Shown piece after piece: positions 5,132 through 38,800 of a stretch of 40,846 nt of DNA. The position numbers and the translations under genes are program-made. The stretch covers positions 1-40,846 of the forward strand of contig JBFLYA010000006.1 in NCBI GenBank assembly GCA_040757115.1, written 5' to 3'. The notes beneath the pieces are model-generated. The model searched no databases and had not been told where the DNA came from. It worked only from the letters and a program-made list of their open reading frames with translations. This stretch comes from a bacterium (lineage in GTDB: Bacteria; UBA9089; CG2-30-40-21; SBAY01). Numbering within the stretch: the first letter of the stretch is position 1; each line of letters starts with the position of its first letter.

Positions 5132-5208
5132 AACTATTCAGCCACAGAGGGACACAGATGAAACACTGAAAATTCGTAATCCGTGTCAATCAGTGGTTGA
5201 ATACTGTT
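5132..5208. mobile_element. MITE-like repeat, family 1 (short copy, ~77 bp)
   Basis: aactattcagcc...cagtggttgaatactgtt shares termini and the 'gatgaaacact(g/a)aaaattcgtaatccgtgtc' core with 954-1202. It overlaps the 3' end of the 391-aa gene. Confidence 0.5.
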
Positions 5209-6382
5209 ATCCTTCTTTTCTTGGTATAGTTAAGATAAATTCACTCTCTATAACCTCAAGTAGCACATCTTTACCAGTAGTCTTTTTTACAGATTCTATT
5301 ATTCTTTGTATTCCAGTTCCTATATCTGTTACAAATCCCATCTTGCCAAGTAAGTTATATATTGTTGGGTTTCTTACCACATGGGCTCCACCTATTTTAA
5401 TGTTTTCAATACTGACGCTATTAGGTAATTTGCCTGGGCTATGAAACTCTATCCTGTTAGTAAATATAAATATCCGAATAGGAGCACTAATAGTATAATC
5501 CCTATGGGCTACTGCATTAACAAGGGCTTCTCTTAAGACAAAATCTTCAATCTCAGGATATTTTTCATTTTCAAGTCCTTTTATAATATGTTTTTCTTTT
5601 ATGTAAATCTTTAGAAATCGCATACAATCCTCAAGTATTTGTGGAACTTTACCGTCAAACTTTTTTAGATCAGATGGTGGAATAGCCATATCATCTCCAT
5701 CTATATAAGCAGTAACTATGTATGAAGTTGGAATATAAAATTGAGGGTTTTCTCCAAAAAACAGAATTCCTGCAAGGGTTGGTTTTTTGTTTTTTGAAAG
5801 CGATTTTATATTAATTAAATACGGTATTAAATCTTTATCTTTTACTTTTAGAGGGAAATACCTTTCTAAAAATTTTTTAGCATAATCAGTATCAATATCT
5901 TTAATACTTGCTCTTGAAATTTCAATCTCATCGTAGTATATACTTTCAGTAGCCTGGAAAAGGCGCAGAAGTTCTTGTCTTCCTGCCTGCCTGCATCTAT
6001 TGGCACTTCGTATGTAATATAATCCTCTTCCAGTTCTGTAAGGTCTTTGATCCCCTTTAGGAACATTCACTATTATTATATTTTTCTCAACAACTACTAA
6101 TGACTCAGTTACAACAGTACAAGGCGGTTCACATCTATTAAAGGCAACATCATCAATTTTCCTTATAGTTTCATCCAGTTCTTCCCTTTCTAATCCAACA
6201 ATTTCACCATTATCACGAACACCTATAATTATTTGACCTCCGTCTGTATTTGCAAAACAAACAATACTTTTTGCAAGTTCTTCATTATCAGTAAGTTTTT
6301 CTTTGAAATCGGTATGTAAATCCTCGCCTTTTAGGATTCTTTCTCTAAGTTCATTCATCATGTTTCTCCTTTGATTGACCAC
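5207..6382 (-). CDS. putative transcriptional regulator with AlbA_2 (Schlafen-like divergent AAA) N-domain and RecG-C-like HATPase_c_4/HTH C-domain
   Basis: N-terminus ELRERILKGEDLHTDFKEKLTDNEELAKSIVCFANTDGGQIIIGVRDNGEIVG matches the AlbA_2 consensus (E..EFK.....AK.I.AFAN..GG.I..GV.D.G). C-terminal ~150 aa (REALVNAVAHRDY...PG.LP) matches the RecG C-terminal-like regulator domain. Confidence 0.7.
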   Translation of the reverse strand: MVNQRRNMMNELRERILKGEDLHTDFKEKLTDNEELAKSIVCFANTDGGQIIIGVRDNGEIVGLEREELDETIRKIDDVAFNRCEPPCTVVTESLVVVEKNIIIVNVPKGDQRPYRTGRGLYYIRSANRCRQAGRQELLRLFQATESIYYDEIEISRASIKDIDTDYAKKFLERYFPLKVKDKDLIPYLINIKSLSKNKKPTLAGILFFGENPQFYIPTSYIVTAYIDGDDMAIPPSDLKKFDGKVPQILEDCMRFLKIYIKEKHIIKGLENEKYPEIEDFVLREALVNAVAHRDYTISAPIRIFIFTNRIEFHSPGKLPNSVSIENIKIGGAHVVRNPTIYNLLGKMGFVTDIGTGIQRIIESVKKTTGKDVLLEVIESEFILTIPRKEG

Positions 6383-7329: not shown

Positions 7330-7740
7330 TCTCCTTATAATTGGTAACTGGTAACTGGTAACTGGTGAATGGTGATTAGTGCTCTGTTGCCATTCAAGTG
7401 ATTGATTGGCCATTGTCCCCCGCTGGCGGGGGTCTTATCGTTACCCACATCTTTTACTGGACAATGTTATTAACTATGCATTCATTCACAATTCACCATT
7501 CACAATTTTTTCCCTAAATTTCCTTAATAATGATGAATGGTGAATTATCAATTGTCAATTATTAAAACCCCTTTCTTCTCACGCTTCACGGTGTCCACTA
7601 AAACTTGTGGGTAACGATAAGGGCGGGGGTAGGGGGGTGGATTTTTCTATTTCAGATTTCATATTCCACCCTATTACCCCCGCCAGGGGACATCAATTGA
7701 GTAGCGACAGAGCATTAGTCACCAATTTTTAAATTCGTGA
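7330..7740. repeat. complex nested inverted-repeat region (ggtaactgg tandem, ~65-bp outer arms around cccgctggcggggg cores, inner cattcacaat palindromes)
   Basis: 7372-7440 is approximately the reverse complement of 7660-7735. 7421-7440 is approximately the reverse complement of 7603-7622. The internal 7440-7600 segment is itself partly palindromic. Confidence 0.6.
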
Positions 7741-8110
7741 AGCCCTATAGAGTATTATAATATCAAAATCTATATTAATTGTCAATTTATTTTTTATCTT
7801 GACATTTACAGATTTATCTGATAGGCTAATTATAGCAGTTATTAGTCAAAATTTACTCAGAGTGGATAAGTAAAAAATCCCAAATCCCAAGCACCAAATC
7901 TCAAATAAGCACCCAATTTCAACTAATAAATACCAAACTATGGGGGGGTAATGTTTTGAATTTTGGTCATTCGAATTTGTTTGGAATTTGGAATTTGTGA
8001 TTTGGAATTTCAGAGCCATATCTATGTCAAATTTCGATTAATAACTGCTATAGTAGTCATTAGTTTTTGCTTTCTGATGGCTGAACACTTAGAATAGAGG
8101 AGTATAAATT

Positions 8111-9164: not shown

Positions 9165-9300
9165 AATGAAAATAGTAGGCAAGTAGGTAGTAGGTAAGTA
9201 GGAAAGGGATAAAGGATGTGCACGGTATTCCTCTTCTGGGGGTAATGTCTCCTCCTTTCCTACTCTCCTACTTCCTACTTTCAGGAGAATCCCCCATTTC
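9165..9300. repeat. palindromic 'gtaggaagt / acttcctac' repeat element
   Basis: aagtaggtagtaggtaagtaggaaaggg ... cctttcctactctcctacttcctact forms an imperfect hairpin. Related motifs occur at 10375-10430, 15700-15740, 19795-19925 and inside the CDS at 33170-33225. Confidence 0.55.
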
Positions 9301-10170: not shown

Positions 10171-10195
10171 TTTTTTTCACCTCCTTTAGTTTGGT

Positions 10196-10262
10196 AAATG
10201 GTAACTGGTAATTGGTAACTGATAACTGGTAATTAATTACCAATTACCAGTTACCATTTAAC
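10196..10262. repeat. perfect long palindrome of 'ggtaactgg/ccagttacc' units
   Basis: aatggtaactggtaattggtaactgataactggtaattaattaccaattaccagttaccattt is self-complementary. Related ggtaactgg runs occur at 2965-2990, 7340-7380 and 10905-10940. Confidence 0.6.
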
Positions 10263-10521
10263 CGATTACTTATTTTTAATTTCGTGAAGTCCTATTTGGT
10301 CAACGCTCTCGGATAAATTTGAGCGTTGATTTTATTAGTTTTCTCAAATCCACAGTTCTTCCTTCACCTCCATCTTTTTAAGTAGGAAGTGAGAAGTGAA
10401 AAGTGAGAAGTAAGAAAGTAAAAGGATAATTGATTAAACAGATTACATTTTTTGTAACCGTTCACCGCAGAGACACAGAGACGCAGAGAAGAAAATTAAA
10501 ATTTATGGACGATAGGCTTAA

Positions 10522-10633
10522 CATCCCTGATTTTCATCAGTGCAAGCTCCTGAGTCCAACAACATTAAACTTGCCCTGATGAAAATCAGGGATGGATTAA
10601 CAAATCTGGCTTGCCGGCTGAACATTCGGCAAG
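10522..10633. other. highly structured intergenic segment: 19-bp perfect stem with 35-nt loop, followed by an 8-bp GC stem
   Basis: catccctgattttcatcag (10522-10540) pairs perfectly with ctgatgaaaatcagggatg (10576-10594). It is followed by gcttgccg...cggcaagc (10601-10627). No ORF support. Confidence 0.4.
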
Positions 10634-10924
10634 CAGGTCATAAGTATTTCAATGGCTACACCAATAATCTTTTCTGTTATCTGATTTATTTCCATATCTT
10701 CTCTGTTCCTCTGCGTCTCTGCGGTAAATTACCACCTGAACGGTTACCATTTTTTATTGTAAGCGGATTGAACGGATTGAGCGGATTTTTTTATTTCTTT
10801 TTCCGCTAAATTCGTTAAATCCGCTTACTAAATCCACCCGCTTGCTATTAAAAATCTGCTTCCTTAATTTTCTACCTGCACAGGTCGAAAGTTTTCTTGC
10901 TAAATGGTAACTGATGAATGGTAA

Positions 10925-12875: not shown

Positions 12876-13931
12876 TTAATTTTCCTCTAACATCTTCTTT
12901 ATCTTTTCCTTTCCAAGAAGTTTTATAAGATCTCTTTGTATTTTCTCTTCCCCAATGCTACGAATTACCTCTTTTTCCCCAATGCTACGAATTACCTCTT
13001 TTTCTCCAATGCTACGAATTACCTCTTTTTCCCCAATGCTACGAATTACCTTCTTTTCCCCAATGCTACGAATTACCTTCTCCTCTCCAATCCCTTGCAC
13101 AAATTTGTCAATCCCTACTATATCGACAAGCTCTCTCATTATATCTGGTCTATCTGCTAATGTCTTCGGCATCAATTTTACCTCCTCTTCTCCCAGACTC
13201 CGAAGTAACCTCTCCTTACCAATACCCTGGATAAACTTATCAACTCCAACTATATCTGCCAGTTCACCAATTATATCTGGTCTATCTGCTAATGTCTGTG
13301 GCATTAATTTCACCTCCTCCTTAAATTCATCAGGATGTAGATACAACCCTGTTTCTATTAACTCTACTAACTCTACCTCTAATATATCTTCCCTTTTACT
13401 ACCTATTCCCCTGGCTAATTCCCTAATGGATTCTCCTGAAGTAAAAAGAATTAGTCCATAGTTTTCAGGAGTCACCTCTAACCTATCCAGCTGGATTAAA
13501 TAAAAATTAAACCCAAAATCCGCAAAATAAAGCCCTTCCTTTATCTTTGCCAGTTTATGCCCATTACCACGAATATAATCCTCTATCCCCTTTATACCAC
13601 CGCTTAAAAGTGCATAAACATTTATTTGTCTTCGCCATTCTATATTCTTTTTTATCTTAAATAATAGCACATAAGCAAATAATCGGTCAAAATCATTCCG
13701 GGTGAATCTATCCCCAGGTGATTTATATTCAATAACATTATAATCAGTAAATGATTGGAAGACAAAAGGTAAGGATTTAACATCCGCATCCTTGCCCTTT
13801 TTAATGACCACAATATCTATCCTTAATGGCATTTTGCCAACTTCAACCTCAGTTTCAACCGTAAACCCTTTAGGTTCGAGTAGATGTTTTAATACATTTG
13901 AGAAATACGGATGCCATTTCTTCTTCATCAT
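12876..13931 (-). CDS. PD-(D/E)xK nuclease-family (Rpn/TIGR01784-like putative transposase/invertase) protein with C-terminal tandem peptide repeats
   Basis: N-terminal core RIDIVVI ... VIEYKS supplies D...E-x-K in the expected order and spacing. The C-terminus carries 2 x 39-aa (EEVKLMPxTLADRPDI..EL.DIVG.DKF.QGIG.E) and 6 x 9-aa (V/I)IRSIGEKE repeats. Confidence 0.5.
   Translation of the reverse strand: MMKKKWHPYFSNVLKHLLEPKGFTVETEVEVGKMPLRIDIVVIKKGKDADVKSLPFVFQSFTDYNVIEYKSPGDRFTRNDFDRLFAYVLLFKIKKNIEWRRQINVYALLSGGIKGIEDYIRGNGHKLAKIKEGLYFADFGFNFYLIQLDRLEVTPENYGLILFTSGESIRELARGIGSKREDILEVELVELIETGLYLHPDEFKEEVKLMPQTLADRPDIIGELADIVGVDKFIQGIGKERLLRSLGEEEVKLMPKTLADRPDIMRELVDIVGIDKFVQGIGEEKVIRSIGEKKVIRSIGEKEVIRSIGEKEVIRSIGEKEVIRSIGEEKIQRDLIKLLGKEKIKKMLEEN
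12936..13100. repeat. 27-bp perfect/near-perfect tandem repeat x6 (within CDS; encodes IRSIGEKEV x6)
   Basis: ccccaatgctacgaattacctcttttt(c/t) repeated head-to-tail. It also creates an artefactual 168-aa ORF on the opposite strand. Confidence 0.8.
13101..13335. repeat. ~117-bp direct repeat x2 within the same CDS
   Basis: atatctggtctatctgctaatgtct(t/g)(c/t)ggcat(c/t)aatttcacctcctc and flanking sequence occur twice. Confidence 0.65.
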
Positions 13932-15845: not shown

Positions 15846-17714
15846 ATGAAATATAAAAAGGTGATTTTTGGGGGAATTGCTATCTTTTTAACTATAGTGA
15901 ATAACTCTTATCCTGCCACAGTTTCTACATCCTCACTCCTTAGAAATGGTGATTTTAGTGCGGGACTTGATTTGTGGGAAGAACTACGGCAGGGGAAGGC
16001 AAATATTATGACTATTAATATTGTTAAAGATAGCCCAAAGTATCCACATGTTCTTCAATTTAAAAGAAAAATAGCCAGAAAAACCATAGGTAAATTAGGG
16101 ATTAAACAGGATATAAATAGAGAGGTTGCTACTGTATCTACATCACTTTTTATCAAAACAGATGTAAAGGTAATTCACTCTTCACTTATGAGTGATACCC
16201 TTCTCAAAGGTGGGATTTACCCACTTACTCTGGAAATAGAGTATTTGGATGAACAGGGAAAAATCTACTTGTGGAAGCATGGCTTCTTATATTCCACACC
16301 CAGATATAAAGATAAAGGAGAAATGGTAAAACGGAATGAATGGCACTCATATACTTCTGAAAACCTACTTTCATTAACTCCAAAGCCAAAGATAATCACT
16401 CAGATAAAGGTCTATGGTGAAGGTTGGGAATTCTGGGCAAGGATAGCAAATCTTCAACTACTTGAAGAAAGACTATCAGTAGCCGAAGAATTAGTTACAG
16501 AGCAAAAGGAAGGCGATGAAGGAACCTCCCCCTTAATCCCTCTCCAGAAGGAGATAATTGTGGGGAGTTCGAGTCAAGAAGAAATTAAGAAAGAGGAAAA
16601 ATCTGCACTTGCGTCTGAAGAGAAAGAACCACTAATTACCAATACCTTTGTTGATACTGATATAAGGCAAGCACTTCAAGATATAGCTTCACAGGCGCAG
16701 GTTACTATTATTGCAGACGAGAGTGTTCAAGGAGTAGTATCTATGGAGTTAGATAATCTACCGTTAGAAAAGGCGCTTAAAAGAATCCTTACCCCTTCGG
16801 GATATCTTTTTAAAAAAATAGAAGATTATTACCTGGTTACCTCGTCTGACCCTACTACCCCGACATTCCTTCTATTATCTACAGTTGAACGAATTAAACC
16901 CAGTTACTTAAAAGTAGATTCCATATCTAATCTCCTACCAGCTAATTATGCTAAATATATCAAAACAGATTCTGGCGAGAATATCCTTACTGTAACCGCA
17001 CCAGCAGAGATTATTGAAGAAATTAAGGAATATATAAAAAAGATTGACCTTGCACCTAAACAAATACTTGTAGAGGTGATGGTAACTGAATTATCCGAGC
17101 AAGCAAGAAGAAGTCTGGGAATAGATTGGTCTTTCCAGGAGGGAAAGACTAAAGTTACACTTCTACCTACTACACTGGAGTTAAAAGGGAATTATCTAAG
17201 TGTTGGAGTATCCTCAGAAGCTATGGCTACCATAAAGATATTAGCTGAGAAAGGAAAAGCAAAGATTAGAGCTACTCCGCGAATACTTACTATAAATGGC
17301 AAAACAGCTAATATCTATATGGGTAGGGAAGAATACTATTCCCTACCAGGAACTGCTTATCAACCCGCAAGTTTTAGTAAGGTATTAAGTGGAATTACCT
17401 TAAAAATTACCCCTTATATATGTAGTGATGATGAGATTACAGTTTCTATTGAACCTGATGTAAGTGATGTTACTGGAATAGGCAAGGAAGGTTATCCGGT
17501 TATCAGTAAGCGAACTGCAAATACTATGGTCAGGATGAAAAATGGCCAAACAATTACTATTGGTGGACTAATTCAACAAAAAGAGGAACATAATATCACC
17601 AAGATACCCGTGATAGGAAGTATACCTTTATTAGGATTCCTTTTCCGGAATACTCAAATTAAATCTGCAGAAACAGAAATAGTGATATTTATTACACCGC
17701 ATATCATTGATTAA
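15846..17714 (+). CDS. secretin-family outer-membrane channel (GspD/PilQ-type) with atypical CBM-like N-terminal domain
   Basis: C-terminal secretin domain: the GG motif with downstream P.IG..P.LG.LF ... E.VIFITPHII, which is the canonical secretin C-domain signature. A secretin-N/STN-like domain (FVDTDIRQALQDIASQAQVTII...LPLEKALKRIL) is present. The N-terminal ~200 aa begins NGDFSAGLDLWE, reminiscent of CBM4_9-type carbohydrate-binding modules, and is followed by an E/K/S-rich linker. Confidence 0.82.
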   Translation: MKYKKVIFGGIAIFLTIVNNSYPATVSTSSLLRNGDFSAGLDLWEELRQGKANIMTINIVKDSPKYPHVLQFKRKIARKTIGKLGIKQDINREVATVSTSLFIKTDVKVIHSSLMSDTLLKGGIYPLTLEIEYLDEQGKIYLWKHGFLYSTPRYKDKGEMVKRNEWHSYTSENLLSLTPKPKIITQIKVYGEGWEFWARIANLQLLEERLSVAEELVTEQKEGDEGTSPLIPLQKEIIVGSSSQEEIKKEEKSALASEEKEPLITNTFVDTDIRQALQDIASQAQVTIIADESVQGVVSMELDNLPLEKALKRILTPSGYLFKKIEDYYLVTSSDPTTPTFLLLSTVERIKPSYLKVDSISNLLPANYAKYIKTDSGENILTVTAPAEIIEEIKEYIKKIDLAPKQILVEVMVTELSEQARRSLGIDWSFQEGKTKVTLLPTTLELKGNYLSVGVSSEAMATIKILAEKGKAKIRATPRILTINGKTANIYMGREEYYSLPGTAYQPASFSKVLSGITLKITPYICSDDEITVSIEPDVSDVTGIGKEGYPVISKRTANTMVRMKNGQTITIGGLIQQKEEHNITKIPVIGSIPLLGFLFRNTQIKSAETEIVIFITPHIID

Positions 17715-17749
17715 TTACTTTACGAAGCCTCTGGGATAAAATATAGAGG

Positions 17750-18316
17750 AATGGTTAACCCTACAACGACATCTATGATTGATCCACAAATCAGGTGGTC
17801 TGGTGTCTGGGTGTCTAAGTGCCTGTGAGGTGGGTATGAGTGACGATAAGTATCGGCTGGATGATTTTGAGCTTTATCAACTGGCACGTAAGTTTCGACA
17901 AAATGTTTACAAGCTCATTAAACAGCTTCCATCTGAGGAGCGCTATTGTTTAGACCCGCAGATGAGAAAGGCGATTGTCTCAGTCACGAACAACATCGCA
18001 GAAGGACATGGACGTTGGCATTATCAGGAGAATATACGATTTTGCAGGATTGCAAGAGGTTCGGTTGAAGAAATTCTGGACGACATCAATGTTTGTATGG
18101 ATGAAGGCTACGGAGAGAAATCCGTAAGCGTTCAGCTCAGGAAGGAAGGTTACGAGCTAATTGCGAAAGTTAACAGTTATATTGGCTATCTACGTAGATG
18201 TAAGCAAGGAATGGAGGAAGAACAGTCTGGTGGTCAGACACCAGACACCTATCCCTCAGAGTATCTGAACGCTTACTAGCGGTAAAATTAGTAAATGACG
18301 TTGTAGGGTTAAATAA
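17750..18316. mobile_element. TIR-flanked, GC-elevated cassette carrying a four-helix-bundle (23S rRNA IVS-type) gene
   Basis: Imperfect TIRs ttaaccctacaacgacat (17755-17773) and atgacgttgtagggttaa (18297-18314). Inner inverted motifs ggtggtctggtgtctgg / ccagacaccagac. The enclosed gene is ~47% GC against ~35% in the flanks. Confidence 0.4.
17836..18279 (+). CDS. four-helix-bundle protein (TIGR02436; 23S rRNA intervening-sequence protein family)
   Basis: Y.LARKFRQNVYKLIKQLP..ERY.L..QMRKA..SV..NIAEG.GR....E...F..IARGS..E matches the family consensus. Start placed at MSDDKYRL. The ORF-track start at 17779 lies inside the left TIR. Confidence 0.82.
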   Translation: MSDDKYRLDDFELYQLARKFRQNVYKLIKQLPSEERYCLDPQMRKAIVSVTNNIAEGHGRWHYQENIRFCRIARGSVEEILDDINVCMDEGYGEKSVSVQLRKEGYELIAKVNSYIGYLRRCKQGMEEEQSGGQTPDTYPSEYLNAY

Positions 18317-18622
18317 GTTTTTGATTTTCGATTTTTGTCCAATCTAAACAGGTTAATACGCCATTTCACTAACCCATTACAAATTTGCTAAACTTTTTCC
18401 TTGACAATTTTATAGGTTAAATGGTATAATTATCTTACCTTAAAAAAATGGGAGGGAATATTATATGATGGAATTGAAATATATTTAAGTTTGGAACTTA
18501 AATCAGATAAAAAATACCTATAGGCTTAACATAACCGTATCCTTATTCTAATAAAAATCTCATAGTAGGAAATTCACCTTCTTTAAGAAGGACAAGATAT
18601 ATATAGAAGGGGAAAGATAAAA

Positions 18623-19279
18623 ATGTCTACTCCATTTGAGAAGGAAATTTACGATTATGAATTAGAGGCGGATATTTCTTTTGAAAGATTGGAAAAGGTA
18701 AAGCCTACAGAAGATGAGGATACAATTTTAATTAGAAAAAGTATTGAAGGTGATAATTCTGCTTTTGAGAAATTAGTGGGTCGATATGAAGCAAGGGTTT
18801 ATCACCTGATTTACAATATCTTAGAGAATAAAGAAGATGCAGAAGATTTATTACAAGAAACTTTCCTCAAGGTTTATCGATTTCTTTATCAGTTTAGAGG
18901 GGAAGCAAAATTTATTACCTATCTATATCGGATAGCAACAAATCTTTGCTTTCAAAAATTAAAGAAAAAAAAGACTTCCTATTCTCTCGATAACCTTTTA
19001 GAGGCTAATCTTAATGATGAGATGGTTGAATTAGTAAGTATGAAGTTGGGTAATCCTGAAGAAATACTTTTAAAAAAGGAACTTGGCTTAATAATAAATG
19101 AAGCTATTCAAAAATTACCTGAAAAATTCAGAGTAGTCTTTTTCCTCCGAGAAATAGAAAATTTTTCTAATAAACAAGTAAGTGAAATATTAGGTTATTC
19201 AATTGGAACTATAAAATCACAAATACATAGGATAAGGCGATTCTTACATAAGAAAATACTTCCTTATCTCACAATTTAA
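18623..19279 (+). CDS. RNA polymerase ECF-type sigma-70 factor
   Basis: Region 2 (AEDLLQETFLKVYRFLYQFRGEA.F.TYLYRIATN) and region 4 HTH (Q.VSEILGYSIGTIKSQIHR.RR.L). A ~45-aa N-terminal extension is present. Confidence 0.88.
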   Translation: MSTPFEKEIYDYELEADISFERLEKVKPTEDEDTILIRKSIEGDNSAFEKLVGRYEARVYHLIYNILENKEDAEDLLQETFLKVYRFLYQFRGEAKFITYLYRIATNLCFQKLKKKKTSYSLDNLLEANLNDEMVELVSMKLGNPEEILLKKELGLIINEAIQKLPEKFRVVFFLREIENFSNKQVSEILGYSIGTIKSQIHRIRRFLHKKILPYLTI

Positions 19280-19794: not shown

Positions 19795-19925
19795 TTCCAC
19801 TGAAAAATAGGAAGTAGAGAGTAGAGAGTAGAAAGTAGAGAATAGAGAAAAGTAGAGAATAGAGAGTAAAGAAAACATCACTTCACACGCCTATCTCCTT
19901 ACTTCCTACCTTCTATCTCCTACCA
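19795..19925. repeat. 'agtagagag' simple-sequence array plus complementary 'ctcctacttcc' segment
   Basis: ggaagtagagagtagagagtagaaagtagagaatagagaaaagtagagaatagagagtaaag, then ctccttacttcctaccttctatctcctacc. This is part of a 1-kb repeat-filled spacer upstream of the giant gene. Confidence 0.6.
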
Positions 19926-20224: not shown

Positions 20225-20332
20225 CCCGCTTCTGTCCTCTGCCTTCTGCCCTCTGCCCTCTGCTTTCTGCCCTCTGCCTTCTGTCTTCTGCCCTCTGTAT
20301 TTATCTGTGTTAATCTGTAGCTGAATAATTAC
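20225..20332. repeat. partial family-1 MITE right end (cctctgcc simple repeat + agctgaataattac terminus)
   Basis: Matches the right half of 954-1202, including ctgt(a/c)tttatc(c/t)gtg(c/t)taatc(c/t)gt...gctgaata(g/a)ttac. Confidence 0.5.
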
Positions 20333-20396: not shown

Positions 20397-20583
20397 AATT
20401 TCCACCTGTGCGGTTAAATGTAAAATGGATAATGTAAAATGAGAAATGTCCAATGAAAATGTATAACTGAAAGGTAATGAGTCTTGCGAAGTCCTAAAAT
20501 TTCCCAAATTTCATTTCCTATTTTACATTTATTTTTCCTTTGCGTCTCTGCGATGAATTAGTCTAATCGCACAGGTGGAAAAA
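20397..20583. mobile_element. MITE-like element family 2, copy A (TIRs ttccacctgtgcgRtta / taaYcgcacaggtggaa)
   Basis: ~187 bp, AT-rich core with 'tgtaaaatg' repeats. It is the reverse complement (a few mismatches) of 31461-31651. A solo terminus lies at 867-884. Confidence 0.7.
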
Positions 20584-29700: not shown

Positions 29701-30372
29701 ACATCGCTATTCTTTGTAGTAAAGGATAATGCAGGAAAAGGAATACCAGGGGCAAAGATTACACTGATGCCATTAAATGTAGAAAATGTAGTGAGGGTCT
29801 TCAGACCCGTTGGGGAAAACGCAGAAAATGTAGTGAGGGTCTTCAGACCCGTTGGGGAAAACGCATCTAAAGATGCTCACTACAGACCCGTCTCGGCTGA
29901 GATTATCACTGATGAAAATGGTATGGCAGATATGGTCAAGCCTATCTGGGAATTGTCTGGTAACTACACCATAAAGGTGGTAAAGTTAGGGTATAACTGT
30001 GAAAGTGAGGAGATTACTATTACGGATGAGGAATCGGTTTTTGACCTTGACTTTGTCTTAGAAGCATCACAGCCGTTACCACCCCAGAATAAACTTTACC
30101 AGAATTACCCAAATCCATTCAATCCCAATCAGGAAGAAACACAGATTCCGTATGATTTAGCCGTGAATGCTCATATAGTCATTAAGATTTACAACATTGC
30201 TGGAGAATTAGTCAGGACATTAGAGGAAGATAAACTTGCCGGGTCAAATATTACTACCCCATGGAATGGTAGAAATGATGATGGTGATATTGTCTCCAAC
30301 GGCGTCTATTTCTATCAATTACATATTGGTGGAAGTGTAGTTGGGACTAAGAAGATATTAGTAATAAAATAG
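20725..30372 (+). CDS. giant secreted surface protein (3215 aa): Gly-rich parallel β-helix repeats, IPT/TIG x4, GH2-N-like sugar-binding jelly roll, PEGA, vWFA, CarboxypepD_reg-like x3, T9SS-type C-terminal sorting domain
   Basis: Signal peptide, then ~15 PbH1-like coils, each N.I..N.I.DN.GG.GG...G.GIYL.SS. IPT/TIG units follow (ISPTSGTVGTIVTVEG.GFG.TE...IDFG). YDDSSW...IYTGVDNEIHIYINGVNI...DIPKGYINPGRNVIAV matches the GH2 N-terminal sugar-binding fold. A PEGA domain (SSVPSEAKIYSDG...TPAVLTNLSTGSHQIVLTKP) is present. The vWFA MIDAS motif DRSGSM...ALYDGI...LTDGQEN is present. YIKGY.R...G.G..GV.VYL..... repeats occur three times. The C-terminus NYPNPFNP.T.I.Y.L...A.V.IKIYNIAGELVRTL......G.....WNG.N..G..V.SGVYFY matches Por_Secre_tail/FlgD-Ig-like. 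Confidence 0.88.
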   Translation: MCKKIIWGIMLGIVMIINAKVAVATDVSGTITSNTTWDVAGSPYIITADVIVDQGVTLEIEPNVVVKFATDTSLISYGTLTAVGIPNGTITFTSNKPTPAAGDWTSIKLSGTGSSRSQISYCLTQYAKQAVYLENTDNVTITYNTIRDNKGNDGIDNQATTGEIGAGIYLVSSTNNNIENNTIFNNIGGQGGDGGYGGGVGGAAAGGPGVGIYLSSSSKNTISQNTIFDNIGGQGGRGALFGGGGSGGSGAGIYLSSASVENTISQNTIFNNAGGQGGQSGDSAPGGAGDPGVGYGIYIDDSSCYNNTIATTNTYNGEPIHFYYSQTGIIIEDQILTGSPTTNLGKINLINCSDFTIRGNTISGARGYSGESGDPEGEQGGNGVGIYLYRSGSGVVTSNSISDNIGGRGGTGRKGWYAASTGGSGGMGCGIYLLSSTDVEISDNIISNNQGGRGGGSAGWGSGGKGGLGVGISLGSSTLNSISNNTISNSQGGLYGGGWPCGRNGLGCGIYIDSNSYNNIIDTTNTSDGQPIHYYYNRTGIIIENQTLTGTPTTNLGKIVLINCSNFIIRNNTISGARGDNGKTGWANQVGHPGEIGAGIYILSSTGNTIIDNTISDNQGGLGGGGGGDASGGPGGIGTGIYLGSSTNNTISGNTISNNSGGEGGHATYGNNSSVGGCGGDGAGIYLLSSTDNTILSNNILENSGGRGGGVYQQGNTGGVGAGIYLNSSDNNNISRNSITDNNGGTGGTGNCSRNKAGGAGGIGAGIYLNSSDNNNIRENNAITDNSGGTGGSGCPIGSNGNGVGIYGASSEVANLIYNNIYNNTTYNLSTDISPGTQTAEYNWWGTSVESEIVAKLSGKIDYIPWLMGTWTESAQITISPTSGTVGTIVTVEGEGFGSTETVQIDFGTTKTITTAATNGLGTFSVTFTIDNQPAGTTTVTATGLTSSYSATATFTIISITQPEITLISPTSGTVGTIVTVEGNGFGSTEAIRIDFGTTKTIKISTTNGSGQFTTTFTVDYQPGGTTTLTATGLTSNLVATATFVTITQPTTVIEQEDFWRYTYSPNSGWETLGYDDSSWSKGRAPFGNQSDGDWIPHTDWPAGTTLYLRKYIDLPASAKLTIYTGVDNEIHIYINGVNIFNASAHGFTYRWEYTFDIPKGYINPGRNVIAVQAVDWGGATGFDLKAIAEVNIPPMGSMAISSVPSEAKIYSDGMDTGKLTPAVLTNLSTGSHQIVLTKPLYNNWAETVTVSSGQTTEIDVPLRLSPTIILTPISGTVGIIITVTGENFSPNEAIRIDFGLISSITIASTTAYGTFATTFTVSSQPAGTTTIVATGLTSGSKAYATFTLTIPAQATLTVRLDQIDAAKFPTIECHVRVTQGTTSIAGLTADNFQLTEQSELESIATVEIISVSATNSAGVAIAHVLDRSGSMQGQKITDAKTAANSLVDMMQPLDRMAIVSFASNVTVDQSFTSNQSALHTAINNLVADGATALYDGIYTGIGQCTQEIGVKAVIALTDGQENSSSHTQQQVIDYAIASAVPVYTIGLGSDVNTDILTQIATTTGGTYHFAPNSTQLQEIFADIREEIEQQYLVTYNTHNPNYDGTLRNVVITASYNSAIGSDSGTYRVDEPPKIIRTPETIALGSQSQPANQPLTIAATITDNTAVTNATLFYRHSGTLTSYSQLTMTHMGNNLYKTTIPAASVNYPGVDYYITASDGRLVASDPKNNPEIYPYQIAVYPNEKPVIIHTPVSGALINSSVTITAYATDTTDYVTSVTLSYRIKGYVLYENVVMTKAGNTYTATIPANKMTFVGVEYYIVAMDNYGLRAYHGTDVNPHYIRPNVPPSITITAPPAQGAYATSSYTIAWVDADPDNDAQISLYYDTNNTNYDGSTITTGLSEDSSINSYIWNLSTIPEGSYYIYALIDDGTNTPVYDYSNGPLNIDHSLPRATITTTPASPITAAGTVYVILTASEKLSAVSLTFTPYGKSPLSIPLTTTDYITWQGNFQVTLYTGDGIGTFNYSLKDLFNNIVTGSQTFEIDVSGVIFTQSNYTFNVEKDYNQQGLVRVKNIDNEPHQFFAESINVPKPIAVNFMGDGSVDNPITLQPGEETNLILSMHTQYATKTNYSLGGNLTNDKGLISHTTININVRLPEVRFTVSLISEDPMTLAKTYRITNTGADPIPDLTIDLGALKDKVIMHPLLYSLYLGTSSSVEFKLIPIITETFSGLSGTWSVSSGDKVVEVLTTWQVTGTIYKVTLNQPKLVFDINYLYQYELEQHKVIVGYCPNGAPIWGWVADPRLIKSIDPFYIPTGFGTSNVKSANLSMHFTEGNIEQNRNTYIYMNNNEVGRLINVNPEGYYTFPVAPDYFMYPDPYVGNRRNEISMETDINPAHLAWVGNFRVTILLDKFEVYVIATSSAAATATAWALPYVHHNSDQLFVNITQPPEGFEYKIGAKVQIKAEVKDEHDIFQWLCNVCVSFTNSTQTLNLYDDGMHNDAGVNDGIYANYWYPANEGSVTITVVANNCKTQATATVSGNIIGNRPPSIDILTPTELQTLQGTTTISYQATDPDGDSLYFYIYYSASSIGPWNLFYSGVNTVYLWNTNILENGIYYIRVVASDPNGLTGSDTVKVTVKNKKPKIRVNPTAGSQCALVTVYGEDFGATETVQIDFGLHLNITTGMTNAEGSFTTFFTVDTQPVGTVSVVATGIDSHLRASADFTITALHYIKGYIRYANGEGIPGIKVYLMSPIVDDCFITSSDGYYEFTGLPTGYYRVRPYKEWYTFEPAGREYRILTASCDNQNYIGTPQRYYIKGRCNTEADEGIGGVQVVLSGSVQATYTTNASGYYAFWDVPAGTYTITPYRQFYTFVPANRILPNIDFHQAGQDFVGTSTTVERYYIKGTITDMSHNPLAGVRVYLFGTMDNVFITRADGYYEFTNLESGYYRTSLWKQGYTFEPSGRRYEYLCSHYEHQDFDDDGPPQGIQPPPPTSTLTSLFFVVKDNAGKGIPGAKITLMPLNVENVVRVFRPVGENAENVVRVFRPVGENASKDAHYRPVSAEIITDENGMADMVKPIWELSGNYTIKVVKLGYNCESEEITITDEESVFDLDFVLEASQPLPPQNKLYQNYPNPFNPNQEETQIPYDLAVNAHIVIKIYNIAGELVRTLEEDKLAGSNITTPWNGRNDDGDIVSNGVYFYQLHIGGSVVGTKKILVIK
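29781..29897. mobile_element. MITE-like palindromic element family 3 inserted in-frame in the giant CDS, with tandem 42-bp duplication
   Basis: gaaaatgtagtgagggtcttcagacccgttggggaaaacgca x2 then tctaaagatgctcactacagaccc. Nested hairpins tgtagtgag/ctcactaca and gggtct-tc-agaccc. The same element lies intergenic at 40607-40704. Translated as ENVVRVFRPVGENA x2 ...KDAHYRPV. Confidence 0.7.
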
Positions 30373-31460: not shown

Positions 31461-31651
31461 TTTCCACCTGTGCGATTAGACTAATTCATCGCAGAGACGC
31501 AAAGGAAAAATAAATGTAAAATGTAAAATAGGAAATGAAAAATGGGAAATTTTAGTACTTCGCAAGACTCATTACCTTTCAGTTATACATTTTCATTTTA
31601 CATTTCTCATTTTACATTATCCATTTTACATTTAACCGCACAGGTGGAAAA
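31461..31651. mobile_element. MITE-like element family 2, copy B (inverted relative to copy A)
   Basis: tttccacctgtgcgattagactaattcatcgcagagacgc...catttaaccgcacaggtggaaaa is approximately the reverse complement of 20397-20583. It is followed by a tctgcgtctctg motif also seen at 10470-10495, 10705-10730 and 32750-32775. Confidence 0.7.
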
Positions 31652-32518: not shown

Positions 32519-32580
32519 ATAGCGGTTATTAACTGGAAGTTTACATAGGATAATACCCATAAATAAGGCATGAGAATAAT

Positions 32581-32706
32581 CGTTCCGTTAGGAACATAAT
32601 ATTGGTAGGAATAGATAGACAAATCAATCAGTTCCGTAGGAACGATATATTGGTAGGAATAGATAGACAAATCAATACAGTTCCGTAGGAACGATATATT
32701 GGTAGA
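32581..32706. promoter_or_regulatory. three tandem ~47-bp direct repeats, each with a gttcc-gta-ggaac hairpin core, 130-250 bp upstream of giant gene 2
   Basis: (c)gttccgt(t)aggaac(a/g)ata(a/t)attggtaggaatagatagacaaatcaat(a)ca x2 plus a truncated third copy. Candidate operator or iteron array. Confidence 0.45.
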
Positions 32707-32834: not shown

Positions 32835-35800
32835 ATGCTAAAGAAATTTATCTTAATGTTATTTATATTATTTCCAACTATTAGTAATGCAGGTAATTGG
32901 GTAGCGTTTAAAGAAGGTATTACTTCGCCTACAAAGCCTGAGATTATAGTTGTAAAAGAGGATGCTTCAGGTATTACCTTAGATGCAAGTATCTTGGGGA
33001 TGAAGGTAGAAGCACGGAGCACGGAGCACGGAGCACGAAGTGTAGGGACAGAGATATTTCAGTTGCTTAGTATTCCAGGGCATGAATATAGCTATACCCA
33101 GGAAGTAGGCAAACCCAAACTGCCATTCCTTCAAATTCTCCTTGCCATCCCGGATGATGTAGAAATTAATCTTTCCTCTATTTCTACTTCCCACTTCCCA
33201 CTTCCTACTTCCTACTTAATCTATCCCGTGCCAAAGCAAGTAATCAAGACCACCCCTGAAGGCTACAAATACATCGCTGAGGAGTTCTACATAGATGAAG
33301 ATTTCTACAAGCAAGACATCTGGTATCCGCAAGAGGATAAAGTTATCACTTATCATACCAGTTATCTTCGTGACCAGCGGATACTTTATCTACAAATCCA
33401 TCCTATTCAGTTTAACCCGGCAAAAAATCAGCTTCAGGCTTATTCTAATCTGAAGATAGAGATAAAATACATGGCTAAAAAGGGCAGAAGTATTTCGTTA
33501 AAGCAGTCAAAGATGGCAGAGCCTTTTGCTAATGTCTTGCAGAAATCTGTATTGAATTACCTAGGCTACGGGTCTAAAGACCCTCACTACTTTCGTGCAC
33601 CTAAAAGAATAGGCACGGTTACTTACCCCAGTATCCTTAAAAGCCCCAATAACTCAGCAGATTATTTGATTATCACTTCTTCATCTTATTACCATAATTC
33701 TGATGTAGCCAGACTGGCTGAACATCGTGCTGAGTTCAACGGCTTTGATGTGGCTGTGGTTAATACTACCTCTATCTACAATGAATTCCCTATTACCGAT
33801 AAAGGCACAACTACATCTATTAAGGACTTCATCAGATATGTCTATTATAATTGGTCTGCCCCATCTATGGAGGATAATCATCTGGGATATATCCTTATAT
33901 TTGGGGATGGGGAGGAGACCCGGGATTCTTATGTTCCATCTAAAGAGATTCGAGAGATATATCCAACTATAAGAAATCCGGTATCTGACCCGTGGTATGC
34001 TTGTATTAATGATGAAGATTTGGATTGGAGCTACTGGACAGTGGATATAATGATTGGACGATTGCCTGTAGAGACTGGGACAGATGCAAAGACAATGGTA
34101 GATAAAACAATCGGCTATGAAAAGACCCCTGAGTTAGGTCAATGGCGTAACAAGATTTTATTAGTTACAGGCGAAGATGGTCTTGAACTCACAGTAATAA
34201 AGGATAATTACCTTTTACCTGCCGGGTTTGAAGTCGCTGAAACTACCCGCGGTGATGAGGTGTTTAATGCCATAGATAGTGGTCAATTATTGGTCTCCTA
34301 TTCTGGACATGGTGTCCCATTCGGATGGGCAACGAATCCTGCTTTTTCTGCTGAGCACGATGTCTCAAAACTCTCTAATAGAGGCAAACTACCTGTAGTT
34401 TTAGCCGCTGCTTGTGATACCGCTTGTTTTCAATATGATTATGATTATGTTATAGGAGAAACATTCCTCACAAAAGAAAATGGAGGGGCTATTGCCTATT
34501 GGGGGGCATCTGATCCTACTGGGGCAAATACTGATATATTCATTATAAAGGCATACCAGTTCATAGCCGACTACACCCCAAATACCTTCTATCTTGGACA
34601 AATAACCCTTAATACCTATTTTCAGTCATTACCACAAGAATGGAACCTATTAGGAGACCCTGCACTAACTATCTCACGGGTAGGTCTTGAACCAGGTAAG
34701 GCAGAGTTAGAGGTTGAACCAGTTGATATCAGGTTTAATCCCCAATCCCCTAAACCTGGCCAGCAGACAAATATCTCTGCAATTATCCATAATCTCGGGG
34801 ATATAGATGCAAAAGATGTATTAGTCCAATTCTTCCTTGGCAAACCTGGTGAGGGTGGGATGGAAATAGGCTCTAAAACAATCCCTGCCATCAAGAGTAA
34901 TGACCAGGAAACAGCAGTCATAGATTGGAAACAAAATCTACCTATCGGAGAATATCCAATCTATGTAATAATCAATCCTTATAATACCATTTTAGAAGCA
35001 GGGACAATCAATAATACCACCTGTAAATCTATAGAGATAAATTTCTATCAAGAAGGCTATCCTAAAATCCCTGAGGGAGGATTTACCATAGAAAACTCTC
35101 CTGTCATAGGAGATGTAGATGGGGATGAGGATTTAGAAGTGATGGCTTGTGCAGGAGGATATGTGTATATCTGGCATCATAATGGTTCGCCACTAAATAA
35201 TTGGTATAAGATAATCCCTGACCTTGCAACACCTTCTCCTCCTCTTTTAGCCGAGGTGGATAATGATGATGGATTAGAGGTGATAAAGAATGGTGGTGGA
35301 GGATTCTACATCTTAAGGTCTGATGGTAGTAATCTCGCTGGTTTCCCAATCTCAGGGTCAAATACAAGCAGTCCTGCCCTTGGAGATATAGATGGAGATG
35401 GGGATTTAGAGATTGCTATAGGGATGAACAATAAATTCTATCTCTTCCATCATACCGGAGAATTAGTAAAAGGAGATTGGCCTATAGATATAGCCGTAAA
35501 CCAGAACTATCACCCAATGATAGCAGATATAGATAGAGATGGTCATCTTGAAATTATTGTCCTTGCTGATAAGATATATGTCTTTAATAGCGAAGGTAAG
35601 TTAATTCCTGGGCAATGGCCTAAGAGTATCTCAGGGTATATATTTACTAATGGATTGGCTATAGGTAATATTGATAATGATGATGAATTAGAGATTCTCA
35701 TTGTGACACAAGAGGAACCAAAGATATTTTTGCACGCCTTGAATTATGATGGAACTAATGTGACAGGTTATCCGAAACAGGTAGGAGGAATGGATTATGA

Positions 35801-38800
35801 CTATCCATATTCAGTTACCCCTGGAGATATTGACAATGATAAAGAAATGGAAATAATTATTGATTGTAGAAAATCTATATATGTATTAAATTCTGATGGT
35901 AGTGATTTTCCAGGTTGGCCCAAAGGAGGAAGGGAAAGGGGACCATCTTATCCAGTAATTGCAAATGTAGATGGAGATAAAGTCTTAGAGATTATAGAAA
36001 GTAGAGATGATATGAAGGGAACGGTCACTATTTGGAATAATGATGGGACTAATCAAACAGATTTGTTTTTGAAACCAGGGGATAAAAGGACATCACCCTT
36101 TGTTGTGGGAGATATGGATTTAGATGGAGATATAGAAGTAATCTGTGGTGGGGAGGATTATAAAGACTTAGGTCGGGCATTACCAAAGATTTACATCTGG
36201 GACTACTGGGGCAGTTGTACCGCTGGGGCACTGGAATGGCCGATGGCAAATCACGATATGCGCCGGACTAATTGCTATAATACAGATATTGTCCCCCCTT
36301 CTCGCATAACTGACCTTAAGGCGCTTAATCCCAAACCTACCTCTATTGACTTAACCTGGACTGCACCTGGTGATGACAAAGATAAAGGCTCTTCTACCTG
36401 CTACTACATCCGCTACGCTACCTGGACCATTACCCCACAAAACTGGCACCTGACTAATAAAGCTACATCCACTATTGTTCCCAAAGATGCTGGCTCTCCT
36501 GAATCTTTTACCGTCCCTAACCTCTGCCCAACTACCACCTACTACTTCTGTATTCGCGCCAGGGATGATGACTTCAATCTCTCCCCACTTTCTAATATCA
36601 CCTTTGAGAAAACACTGTCACCAGCAATGATTACCCTGATTTCACCTACAAGAGGTGTAGTAGGTAAGCGGGTTACTATTAGCGGGTGCAATTTCTACCC
36701 GACAGAGACCATTCGCATAGAATTTGGCAATACTACCACTATTGCTCTATCTACCTGTGTTGGTGGTTCTTTTACTACTACCTTTACCGTTAATGACCAG
36801 GGATTTGGCACGATAACCATTACTGCCTATGGACTTATTTCAGGATATGAGGCAAGGGCGTCCTTTTATATCACTGCCGTAGAATATTTTCTGTTTGCCA
36901 CAATTTCCTCTCCCCAAATAGCCGGGACAGGATTTCGAATAAAGATGACTGCTTATGATGAATTTGGTGATGTAGTGCTAAATTTCAAAGATAAAGTTGG
37001 ACTCTCTGACCTTTCTCAAACCATTCAACCTACTATCACCTCTAACTTCACTGATGGCATCTGGGATGGCACAGTTAGCATCACCAGAGCAGGCACGAGC
37101 GCGATTACTGCAGGTTACCAGAGTAAGACAGGCACAAGCAATCCATTTTATGTCTGGCCAGGCGAGCCAGTTAAATTCATCGTCTATCCTGAAAATCCTA
37201 TCTACATCCTGGCAGGGGGTTCAGTAAGCATCACTGCCCAATTAAGCGATGTTTATGGTAATGCGGTTGGGTCTGCAGGGATTAGTTGTAATTTAGAGGT
37301 AGTGGTGCTTTCTGGTAAAGCAGGAACACTATCTGCCACCACTTCTACTACCACCAATACCGGTCAGATAAACACTATTACCTACTGGGTTTCCCCTCAT
37401 GCCAACGATAAAGTCAGGATAAAACTCCTATCTACTCTACCACCTGCTACCTCCGGCACTATTACTACCACTTCTGGCGAATTAGCAATGTTCACCTTCG
37501 ATACTATTGCTACCCAGACTGCGGGGATGAATTTCCCCATTAAAATCACCGCCAGAGATGCCTACGAAAATCCTATCCCTTTTACCAGGACAGTAACTCT
37601 AATTGACTTCAGTAACAGCCTTAAACCTACACAGACTACTTCATTTATAGATGGTCTGTGGGCTGGATTTGGCTCTATCACCGTAAGAGGCACTACCAGT
37701 ATTACTGTGATTTATGGGGATATTCGAGGCACAAGTAACACCTTCTGGGTCTGTGGCGGCGAGGTAGAGTATTTTGTCATTAGCAGCATAACTACTCAAA
37801 CCGCAGGTATTAGTTTCCCAGTCAGCATCAATGCCTATGACCGCTGGAGAAATATTGCTGATATGTTTAACTCATCCGCCATACTAACTGATACCAGCCA
37901 CAGCATTAGCCCGACTAAAACCACAAACTTTAGCCTGGGCATCTGGGATGGCACAGCTAGCATCACCAAAGCAGGCACAACCACGATTATGGCAGGTTAT
38001 CAAGGTAAAACAGGCACAAGCAATCCCTTCTTTATTACCCCCAGTAGCCTCGACCATTTCTTAATCGGCACTATCACCAATCAAATTGCTGGGATAGATT
38101 TTCCTGTCGTCCTCACTGCAAAAGATGCCTACAACAATACAGTAAGCACCTTTACCGATAAGGTGCAATTGGAAGATACCAGCCTAACATTGAATCCAAA
38201 GATAACTGATAATTTTGTGGCAGGTATCTGGGATAGTATTGGCTCTATTACCAGAACAGGCACTACCTCGATTACAGCAAGTTACCAGGGAAAAACAGGC
38301 ACAAGCAATCCCTTCTTAGTTAGCCATAACATTCTTGCCCATTTTCTGATGGGGACTATTAGCAATTGTGTAGCAGGCGTTCCTTTTCCCATAACCATTA
38401 TGGCACAAGATTCTTACGGTAACACGATGCTTAACTTTAGTGATAAAGTCCAGTTAGAGGATAGCTCGCTGAGCTTGAATCCGAAGTTAACCACCAACTT
38501 TGTGGCAGGTATCTGGGATGGCATTGGCTCTATTACCAGAACAGGCACAACCTCGATTATGGCAGGTTACCAGGGGAAAACAGGCACAAGCAATCCCTTC
38601 TTAGTTAGCCATAACCGCCTTGACCATTTTCTGATTGGGACTATTAGCAATTGTCTTGCGGGCATTCCTTTTCCCATCACCATTATGGCACAAGATTCTT
38701 ACGGTAACACGATGCTTAACTTTAGTGATAAAGTCCAGTTAGAGGATACCTCACTGACCTTAAATCCGAAGCTAACCACCAACTTTATGGCAGGTATCTG

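Follow-up and report, generated by a model that had tools for sequence, protein, structure and literature searches.

The stretch of bacterial DNA analysed here (GenBank assembly GCA_040757115.1, contig JBFLYA010000006.1, positions 1 to 40,846 of the forward strand; hereafter the window, 40,846 nt in length) contains, at about 17750-18316, a gene of the PF05635 family, which takes its name from the intervening sequences (IVSs) of rRNA genes. We conclude that the element is probably a free-standing IVS-type cassette, a foldback of about 560 nt that carries an Xcc0516/Avd-like gene in its loop and whose stem would form as double-stranded RNA. The stem is two-tiered: a unique 21-nt outer inverted repeat encloses inner arrays of short tandem units, of which the G-rich ones precede the start codon and the complementary C-rich ones lie in the 3' end of the open reading frame (ORF). 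The same anatomy recurs in relatives from many phyla, in the accB-accC operon of Xanthomonas and on a Nostoc plasmid, and the arrays change length fast while the ORF is conserved. The reading of the cassette as a transposon bounded by terminal inverted repeats is not supported. Its architecture is known in outline from rRNA IVSs and, as far as we searched, is apparently undescribed for free-standing copies and not linked to intergenic heptamer repeats; a literature search, with most subscription journals outside its coverage, returned no paper on heptamer-array arms around free-standing PF05635 genes.

The cassette gene (17836..18279, + strand; MEW6617916.1) codes for a protein of 147 residues. 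The PF05635 profile 23S_rRNA_IVP matches the ORF with an E value of 3.5e-26 and 91.9 bits (cut-off 33.8), the TIGR02436 profile 'four helix bundle protein' with 89.5 bits (cut-off 24), and the one solved protein matched by sequence is Xcc0516 (PDB 2GSC, E 3.7e-13, about 30% identity). The start codon is an ATG with a Shine-Dalgarno-like GAGG at 17827-17830, 5 nt before it; the mechanical ORF list opens the longest version of the gene earlier, at TTG 17779, and in our alignment A1 the homologues start at the position of MSDDKYRLDDF. An AlphaFold model of the monomer, built from 25 homologues, had a predicted local distance difference test (pLDDT) score of 83.6 overall and above 90 in the core, with helices at residues 12-29, 33-59, 63-90 and 95-123. 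This predicted fold is the up-and-down four-helix bundle of Xcc0516 (2GSC, TM 0.91, root-mean-square deviation 1.2-1.3 Å) and BT_0352 (2RLD, TM 0.88), both labelled 'S23 ribosomal protein family', which are the nearest solved structures. The model also resembles Avd, a protein of diversity-generating retroelements (DGRs; 4DWL, TM 0.84-0.85; also 8UB7), and by analogy with Xcc0516 and Avd (2GSC, 4DWL) the cassette protein presumably forms a pentamer. Residues R44, S49, N53 and E56 of helix 2 are invariant in the alignment A1, with the arginine one residue off the spacing of the published PF05635 motif, GxxRxxxSxxxNxxE (PMC3936711). From about residue 129 the C-terminal tail is not conserved in alignment A1 and varies in length among homologues, and residues 129-147 have a pLDDT below 50 in the model; the last 20 or so codons of the ORF are the downstream array read through, which gives the protein this low-confidence, non-conserved tail.

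The base of the foldback is formed by the outer inverted repeat, with its left arm at 17755..17775 (TTAACCCTACAACGACATCTA) and its right arm at 18292..18312 (TAAATGACGTTGTAGGGTTAA), both given on the + strand; the arms are 21 nt long and 90% complementary, with 19 of the 21 positions pairing. Inside it, a G/T-rich degenerate array of 7-8-nt units (GGTGGTC TGGTGTC TGGGTGTC TAAGTGCC TGTGAGG) occupies 17794..17830 (+), with the GAGG in its 3' end, and a complementary array (GTCTGGTGGT CAGACAC CAGACAC C) lies at 18225..18249 (+), inside the 3' end of the ORF. Tandem Repeats Finder (TRF) reported 2.5 copies of period 8 at 17798-17816 and 2.1 copies of period 7 at 18235-18249, and the inner repeat 17798-17809/18235-18246 pairs at 12 of 12 positions. 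An earlier reading of the sequence, the first-pass annotation, had described a four-helix-bundle gene of rRNA-IVS type, bracketed by imperfect inverted repeats of about 18 bp and by inner inverted motifs. The profile scores and the modelled fold bear out the first of these claims, and the second holds with a slightly longer repeat; its 18-mer was found in the window only at the two arms (expected 0.01). The inner motifs are real as well, although the 13-mer given for them, 'ccagacaccagac', is inexact, the sequence reading tcagacaccagac, and it was missed that they are short tandem arrays of 7-8-nt units, inverted around the gene. Their unit, GGTGTCT/AGACACC, occurs nowhere else in the window.

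The duplex between the two flanks has a predicted energy of -63.9 kcal/mol, compared to -38.1 ± 5.1 for shuffled sequences (z -5.1, 0/300). In RNA folding of the whole element both tiers close it in the minimum free energy and centroid structures; the outer stem also appears in the ensemble, where its pair probability is about 1.0 and that of the inner stem 0.65. The anatomy of the cassette, a gene within a two-tier stem, is far beyond chance. A search with Rfam found no RNA family in the window at the gathering score and none at E<=1 around the cassette.

We then compared the cassette with its nearest relatives. The closest, P0001 (MEW6620690.1), is a protein 97% identical to that of the cassette, encoded on a contig of 6 kb from the same NCBI submission, and its differing C-terminus is exactly what results when a single 8-nt unit, AAGACACC, is inserted into the downstream array of the window. 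Four further samples (L001-L004) carry the same element with indels in the arrays, so that the arrays are unstable while the ORF is conserved. The nearest relatives are similar in DNA sequence (88-90%) from the ATG to about 18235; beyond these points the flanks cannot be aligned. L001-L004 and the locus L028 nevertheless carry the same unit types in their flanks (GGTGTCT, AAGTGCCT). The outer repeat does not recur in the flanks of these nearest relatives.

At the scale of the family, a protein search returned hundreds of clusters at 60-97% identity to the cassette protein, and the full scan gave 8132 clusters at 50% identity (E<=0.001). From species-representative genomes 80 loci were fetched, in phyla that include Planctomycetota, Latescibacterota, Zixibacteria, KSB1, Poribacteria, Aminicenantes, Verrucomicrobiota, Bacteroidota and Firmicutes; statistics are on 76-77 of them, and on 79 for GC content. 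The 220 nt before each gene and 280 nt from near the end of the conserved domain were given a local inverted-complementarity score. The median was 41.5, against about 19-20 for cross-locus pairs, 18 in direct orientation and 19 for neighbour genes of the same loci, and 91% of the PF05635 genes (76 relatives) were above the 90th percentile of neighbour genes (Mann-Whitney p 1.6e-20). The inverted score exceeded the direct one in 70 of 77 loci, and 52 of 77 beat the maximum of 12 cross-locus controls. The period of the flanking arrays is 7 in most cases or 8, and is equal on both sides in 36 loci. Arrays of 7-9-nt units have a density of 2.95/kb up to 300 nt from the gene, with most of them no more than 150 nt away, compared to 0.28/kb farther out. 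Examples are (TGGTGAG)x7 upstream and (ACCACTC)x4.6 downstream in L014 (a Planctomycete), (AGTCGCC)x11 and (GCGACTG)x30 in L050, and 8-mers in 20 copies on each side in L046 (a Verrucomicrobium). The polarity of the arms is conserved, upstream arms having 35% G and 17% C and downstream arms 31% C and 21% G, and, by crude longest-ORF calls, 65 of 76 loci have an upstream neighbour that runs in the same direction as the gene, the median gap being 76 nt. Inverted flanking arrays of 7-8-nt units are a hallmark of the whole PF05635 family, across many phyla. A second PF05635 gene was present in only two of the 80 loci. None of the 50,697 phage records searched with tblastn gave a match, and the plasmid-borne relatives are almost all cyanobacterial.

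The first-pass annotation had also given 23S rRNA IVSs as the normal location of members of this family. An Rfam scan of 60 related loci placed none of them inside an rRNA gene, in a sample biased against IVS copies since metagenome-assembled genomes are often without rRNA operons; a free-standing copy is thus normal, or at least clearly common, and the statement is not supported. PF05635 genes have also been reported in 16S and 23S insertions of Candidate Phyla Radiation bacteria by an earlier survey, and wedged in cas operons, for example between cmr3 and cmr2 (PMC3936711). The published association of the family with cas genes may be just that of cassettes wedged into operons.

The best-described counterparts are the 23S rRNA IVSs of Coxiella burnetii and Leptospira, which share with the cassette the protein family, a terminal stem, upstream heptamers and a position inside a host transcript. 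The IVS of Coxiella is closed by a terminal stem of 28 bp, which RNase III cuts, and carries the heptamer GACAGAT in two or three copies, depending on the strain, directly before the S23p ORF (PMC4990558). Like it, the cassette has a terminal complementary stem around an ORF and tandem 7-8-nt units upstream of it. Unlike it, the window copy lies behind a protein-coding gene, has a Shine-Dalgarno-like sequence and is not inserted in a 23S or 16S rRNA helix: no rRNA was matched by Rfam in the window and the flanks are protein-coding.

Free-standing counterparts are found in Xanthomonas spp. (loci L172-L176), where an Xcc0516-type gene (2501-2830/2881) splits accB-accC at the same site in several species. 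Its arms are GGGAATC-type heptamers at 2429-2459 upstream and their complement at 2843-2872 downstream, and in X. citri the ORF continues across the downstream array into accC, which it overlaps. This cassette, likewise a free-standing gene flanked by heptamers and their complement, differs from that of the window in its unit, GGGAATC and not GGTGTCT, in having no unique outer repeat and in arrays that abut the stop and start codons of the neighbours. Two cyanobacterial plasmid copies are built in the same way, that of Nostoc punctiforme bracketed by (TCAGGAG)x7.6 and its complement and that of Calothrix by (TTAGCTG)/(CAGCTAA). Both genera are classical hosts of the heptamers known as short tandemly repeated repetitive (STRR) sequences, according to the literature search.

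In the window, the cassette is preceded by a co-directional secretin gene (15846..17714, + strand; Secretin, E 1.2e-41) and followed by an extracytoplasmic function (ECF) sigma gene (18623..19279, profile search) with a zf-HC2 anti-sigma partner, the place between secretin and sigma genes being that given by the first-pass annotation. The stop codon of the secretin gene and the ATG of the cassette are 121 nt apart, and this interval (17715-17835) holds no promoter-like and no terminator-like site; with no such promoter before it, the cassette is most likely transcribed with the secretin gene. A sigma-70 consensus promoter, TTGACA-18-TATAAT, with 12 of 12 positions and a TG in the spacer, stands at 18401..18430 (+) before the ECF sigma/zf-HC2 pair. 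Judging from its position it would serve the sigma gene and mark the downstream limit of the transcription unit of the cassette. In search of an empty site, identical proteins were sought for the secretin, for the cassette protein and for P0001, and no record was returned; the sigma protein gave only a 1.5-kb contig identical to the window and beginning at 18282. A metagenome scan with the sigma protein yielded matches of at most 46% identity and no synteny, the upstream gene in L088 being unrelated to the secretin. The independent assembly of the same organism (L087, Logan SRR29635779) breaks at window position 18282, 3 bases past the stop codon of the cassette, which is consistent with repeats interrupting the assembly. 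No PADLOC model matched, and the idea that the cassette is a defence system was rejected.

On the reading that we favour, the cassette would have no promoter of its own and would depend on read-through transcription from the secretin gene. In the transcript the two arms would pair into a long double-stranded stem, which RNase III would cut or trim, as has been shown experimentally for rRNA IVSs, so that the mRNA of the cassette would be separated from the host transcript and the host gene left unharmed. A stem of tandem units could pair in several registers, and would therefore withstand the slippage that its repeats often undergo. The protein probably binds structured RNA, by analogy with Avd, whose pentamer binds reverse transcriptase and grips an 11-bp RNA stem-loop of the DGR RNA via flipped-out bases (bioRxiv 10.1101/2023.10.23.563531). 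This is the sole known activity for the fold. The likeness to Avd lies in the fold, and the two differ in sequence (about 8% identity in the structural alignment). A HEPN RNase idea for the family was also considered and was dropped, the HEPN survey, in the text covered by term searches, not mentioning the family.

Several points weigh against this reading. Cleavage by RNase III, which is demonstrated for rRNA IVSs, we infer for the free-standing stem by analogy with them, and the published view of the Coxiella S23p is that it is probably not translated (PMC4990558). Mismatches in the arms are of the G:U type in sense RNA in 82 cases against 65 for the antisense strand, which is no significant excess (p 0.19). 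The orientation counts for upstream neighbours depend on the crude ORF calls mentioned above. In the window itself the inner arrays are short, with about 2-5 degenerate units, and less regular than in most relatives, and the inner stem, with its limited pair probability, competes with a local hairpin at 18225-18246. The outer repeat is not shared with relatives and could thus be a hairpin of the host rather than a part of the element.

Four other explanations were weighed. The least improbable of them, although we still hold it to be improbable, is that the foldback acts at the level of DNA, as a cruciform or single-strand hairpin open to slippage, template switching or attC- or IS200/IS605-like recombination, with a protein that acts on DNA and arrays that are the product or the substrate of the spread of the element. 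The lack of a significant G:U-type excess in the sense strand means that nothing demands RNA pairing, arrays grow and shrink between near-identical copies, and ORF-less foldbacks of the cassette design exist throughout the window. Moreover, arrays more than 300 nt from the gene reuse the unit of the cassette arms in 31% of cases, compared to 3.7% in cross-locus pairings (80 loci), which could reflect copying of DNA. Against it, no recombinase was found, the polarity of the arms relative to the ORF is conserved together with co-orientation with the upstream gene, as expected for a function in the transcript, the rRNA-borne relatives are processed as RNA (PMC4990558), and Avd, the only relative with a known ligand, binds RNA. 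We consider it very unlikely that an ordinary resident gene has come by chance to lie between two of the many intergenic heptamer-array hairpins of the genome. Such hairpins are indeed abundant in the window, several being ORF-less and of like design, and heptamer repeats are over-represented in bacteria generally; however, neighbour genes do not have complementary flanks (median 19 vs 41.5, p 1.6e-20), arrays are 10 times denser beside PF05635 genes than farther out in the same loci, and the arm unit, unique in the window, belongs to a type that travels with the gene into its nearest relatives. That the gene is the Avd accessory gene of a DGR, or a remnant of one, we regard as hardly credible: the likeness of the model to Avd and a weak match to NF033474 DivGenRetAVD speak for it, but this equivalog match reaches 17.2 bits against a cut-off of 80, the annotated ORFs of the window contain no reverse transcriptase domain, and there is no pair of template and variable repeats near the gene, where direct repeats are short and at chance level. 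The DGR reading was therefore rejected.

The remaining alternative is that of the first-pass annotation, a horizontally acquired small mobile cassette flanked by terminal inverted repeats, or, put more fully, a small DNA transposon akin to a MITE (miniature inverted-repeat transposable element), recently transferred and mobilized by a transposase in trans. We judge it unlikely, although a fair number of observations agree with it: the outer repeat is confined to the two ends, a 97% identical second copy is present on another contig of the same submission, close protein relatives occur in several phyla, many homologues are on short contigs, as multi-copy DNA often is, and the G+C content at third codon positions (GC3) of the ORF, 0.439, is the highest of 19 window genes (next 0.390). 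This last value is the sole compositional outlier. The gene had been described as about 47% GC in a neighbourhood of about 35%; the measured values are 43.7% for both ORF and element and 39.0% for the window, whose genes range from 29% to 45%, and the ORF is at the 85th percentile among 444-nt windows of the stretch (z +1.07). Overall GC is thus unremarkable, within the gene-to-gene variance, and recent transfer as deduced from it was rejected. Across 79 loci the GC of the gene follows that of the host (r 0.86), being below that of high-GC hosts and slightly above that of low-GC hosts, so that it gives no pointer to recent acquisition here; related proteins of 55-80% identity are spread over several phyla, which makes horizontal spread over evolutionary time plausible. 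As for mobility, the inverted repeats of a MITE are present, but the 40.8 kb contain no transposase or integrase, no target-site duplication (left flank ...GGAATGG, right flank ATAAGTT...) and no further copy of the outer repeat (TTAACCCTACAACG ends), and the termini are not shared with the nearest relatives, which have only the ORF up to about 18235 in common with the window. In Xanthomonas the gene keeps its one site between accB and accC across species, which argues for long vertical residence. Eukaryotic foldback transposons and bacterial MITEs and repetitive extragenic palindromic (REP) elements offer an analogy only: they too have long inverted arms of short tandem repeats, sometimes enclose an ORF and have ORF-less copies scattered in intergenic DNA, and the cassette differs from them in showing no homology, transposase, target duplication or termini shared between copies.

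The free-standing cassette lies in a window rich in arrays of its type. The window contains 41 arrays of 7-9-nt units where Markov simulations predict 0.8, and 29 of the 41 are intergenic, although intergenic DNA makes up 16% of the window; tandem 7-/8-nt arrays in non-coding DNA are thus far above chance, as in STRR-type repeats, and the cassette arms are of this type. Examples are found at 1128-1156, 2966-2993, 7338-7366, 10192-10269, 19813-19872, 20231-20297, 20416-20463, 31512-31633 and 39476-39551. The units vary from site to site, but some recur: the AACTGGT type at 2966, 7338 and 10192, ACTCTCT at 19813 and 30514, AGAGGGC at 1128 and 20231, and AAAATGT at 20416, 31512 and 31588. Two-tier foldbacks of cassette-like design, without an ORF, are present in intergenic DNA at 7434-7621, 7831-8052, 20399-20581 and 937-1217, each with a unique outer inverted repeat of 18-46 nt around inverted heptamer arrays; these outer repeats have no sequence in common with each other or with that of the cassette. 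Plain array hairpins are located at 9181-9280, 10195-10260, 10461-10728 and 31511-31634. The PF05635 gene of the cassette is the only one in the window.

Arrays and hairpins of this kind resemble the heptamer repeats described as STRR in cyanobacteria, GGGAATC in Xanthomonas, GGGGATT in Nostoc and TAACTGA in Beggiatoaceae, which are intergenic 7-nt arrays, often in convergent inverted pairs. Rehm et al. (PMC4692102) report about 70 convergent inverted GGGAATC heptamer pairs per genome in X. campestris, and the arms of the Xanthomonas cassette are one such pair. The heptamer papers (PMC4692102, PMC4679880) deal with repeats that enclose no gene, for which they propose roles in regulation or as G-quadruplexes, and in term searches of the two no four-helix-bundle, S23 or intervening-sequence protein was mentioned. 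Unlike these repeats, most arrays observed here cannot form quadruplexes (TGGTGAG, TCAGGAG, TGAATCGT).

We tentatively raise the possibility, itself a doubtful one, that PF05635 proteins and heptamer/octamer-array foldbacks are one system, in which the protein would be a trans-acting binder, processor or propagator of array hairpins, the gene-bearing cassette would be the 'autonomous' form, and the ORF-less arrays (STRR, GGGAATC pairs and the 40 or so arrays of the window) would be derivatives or targets. The 10-fold local association of arrays with the gene, the frequent reuse of its arm unit by distant arrays and the ORF-less foldbacks of identical design are compatible with this, as are the Xanthomonas and Nostoc cassettes, which are built from the dominant units of their own genomes (PMC4692102). 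It is weakened by the cassette unit being unique within the window and by the density of distant arrays in PF05635 loci, 0.28/kb, which is only 2-fold over the 0.143/kb of unselected metagenome loci, controls that are themselves maybe not free of PF05635.

PF05635 is a family named after rRNA IVSs, with Avd as its only understood member and thousands of proteins annotated merely as "four helix bundle protein". The free-standing copies retain the build of the rRNA element while lying in ordinary operons, in hosts that range from Planctomycetota to Xanthomonas and Nostoc. Seen in this way, the IVS becomes one of the settings of a general cassette embedded in transcripts, and the family is linked physically to intergenic heptamer repeats such as STRR and GGGAATC pairs. 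If the one-system proposal were true, it would provide a function for the protein of the IVS ORF and an origin or role for heptamer repeats, both unexplained for more than 30 years. The accB-Xcc0516-accC arrangement of Xanthomonas offers a tractable test bed for the roles of stem and protein. On the practical side, the arrays put the 3' end of the gene into different reading frames in near-identical copies; they are also likely to interrupt assemblies and might be taken in error for features associated with cas genes.

A number of other features were noted in the survey loci and in the window. In L028, from a metagenome-assembled genome related to the organism of the window, a 430-aa gene that is not of PF05635 (4659-5951) sits between two inverted copies of a composite array hairpin of about 130 nt (inverted-repeat score 121), so that other genes, too, can be bracketed by structures of this sort in such genomes. 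The Acido-Lenti-1 RNA motif (RF01687) occurs in several copies, on both strands, at no more than 2-3 kb from PF05635 cassettes in two Planctomycetota genomes (L024, 5205-5420; L057, 739-1438). In the window, the 2589-aa ORF at 32835-40604 has heptamer arrays within it (39003-39551 and 33011-33217: CCCCGAG x10.9, GAAATGG x4.6, AGCACGG x3.9, ACTTCCC x4.6); those near 33000 are probably upstream of its true start, and those near 39500 would either be translated as 7-aa repeats or indicate that the ORF is mis-joined. The same gene has 285-nt units in 2.4 copies (38214-38890). Longer repeats are also seen as an exact 42-nt duplication in a 3215-aa gene (29781-29865), as a 27-nt unit in 4.9 copies (12948-13078) inside the ORF 12876-13931, and as an intergenic 48-nt unit in 2.6 copies (32578-32705). 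Two possible defence genes are encoded on the minus strand, one at 120-557, a fragment that corresponds to the C-terminal portion of the CfrBI restriction endonuclease and also gives an OLD-like TOPRIM match, and one at 5207-6382, coding for a Schlafen AlbA_2/HATPase_c_4 protein.

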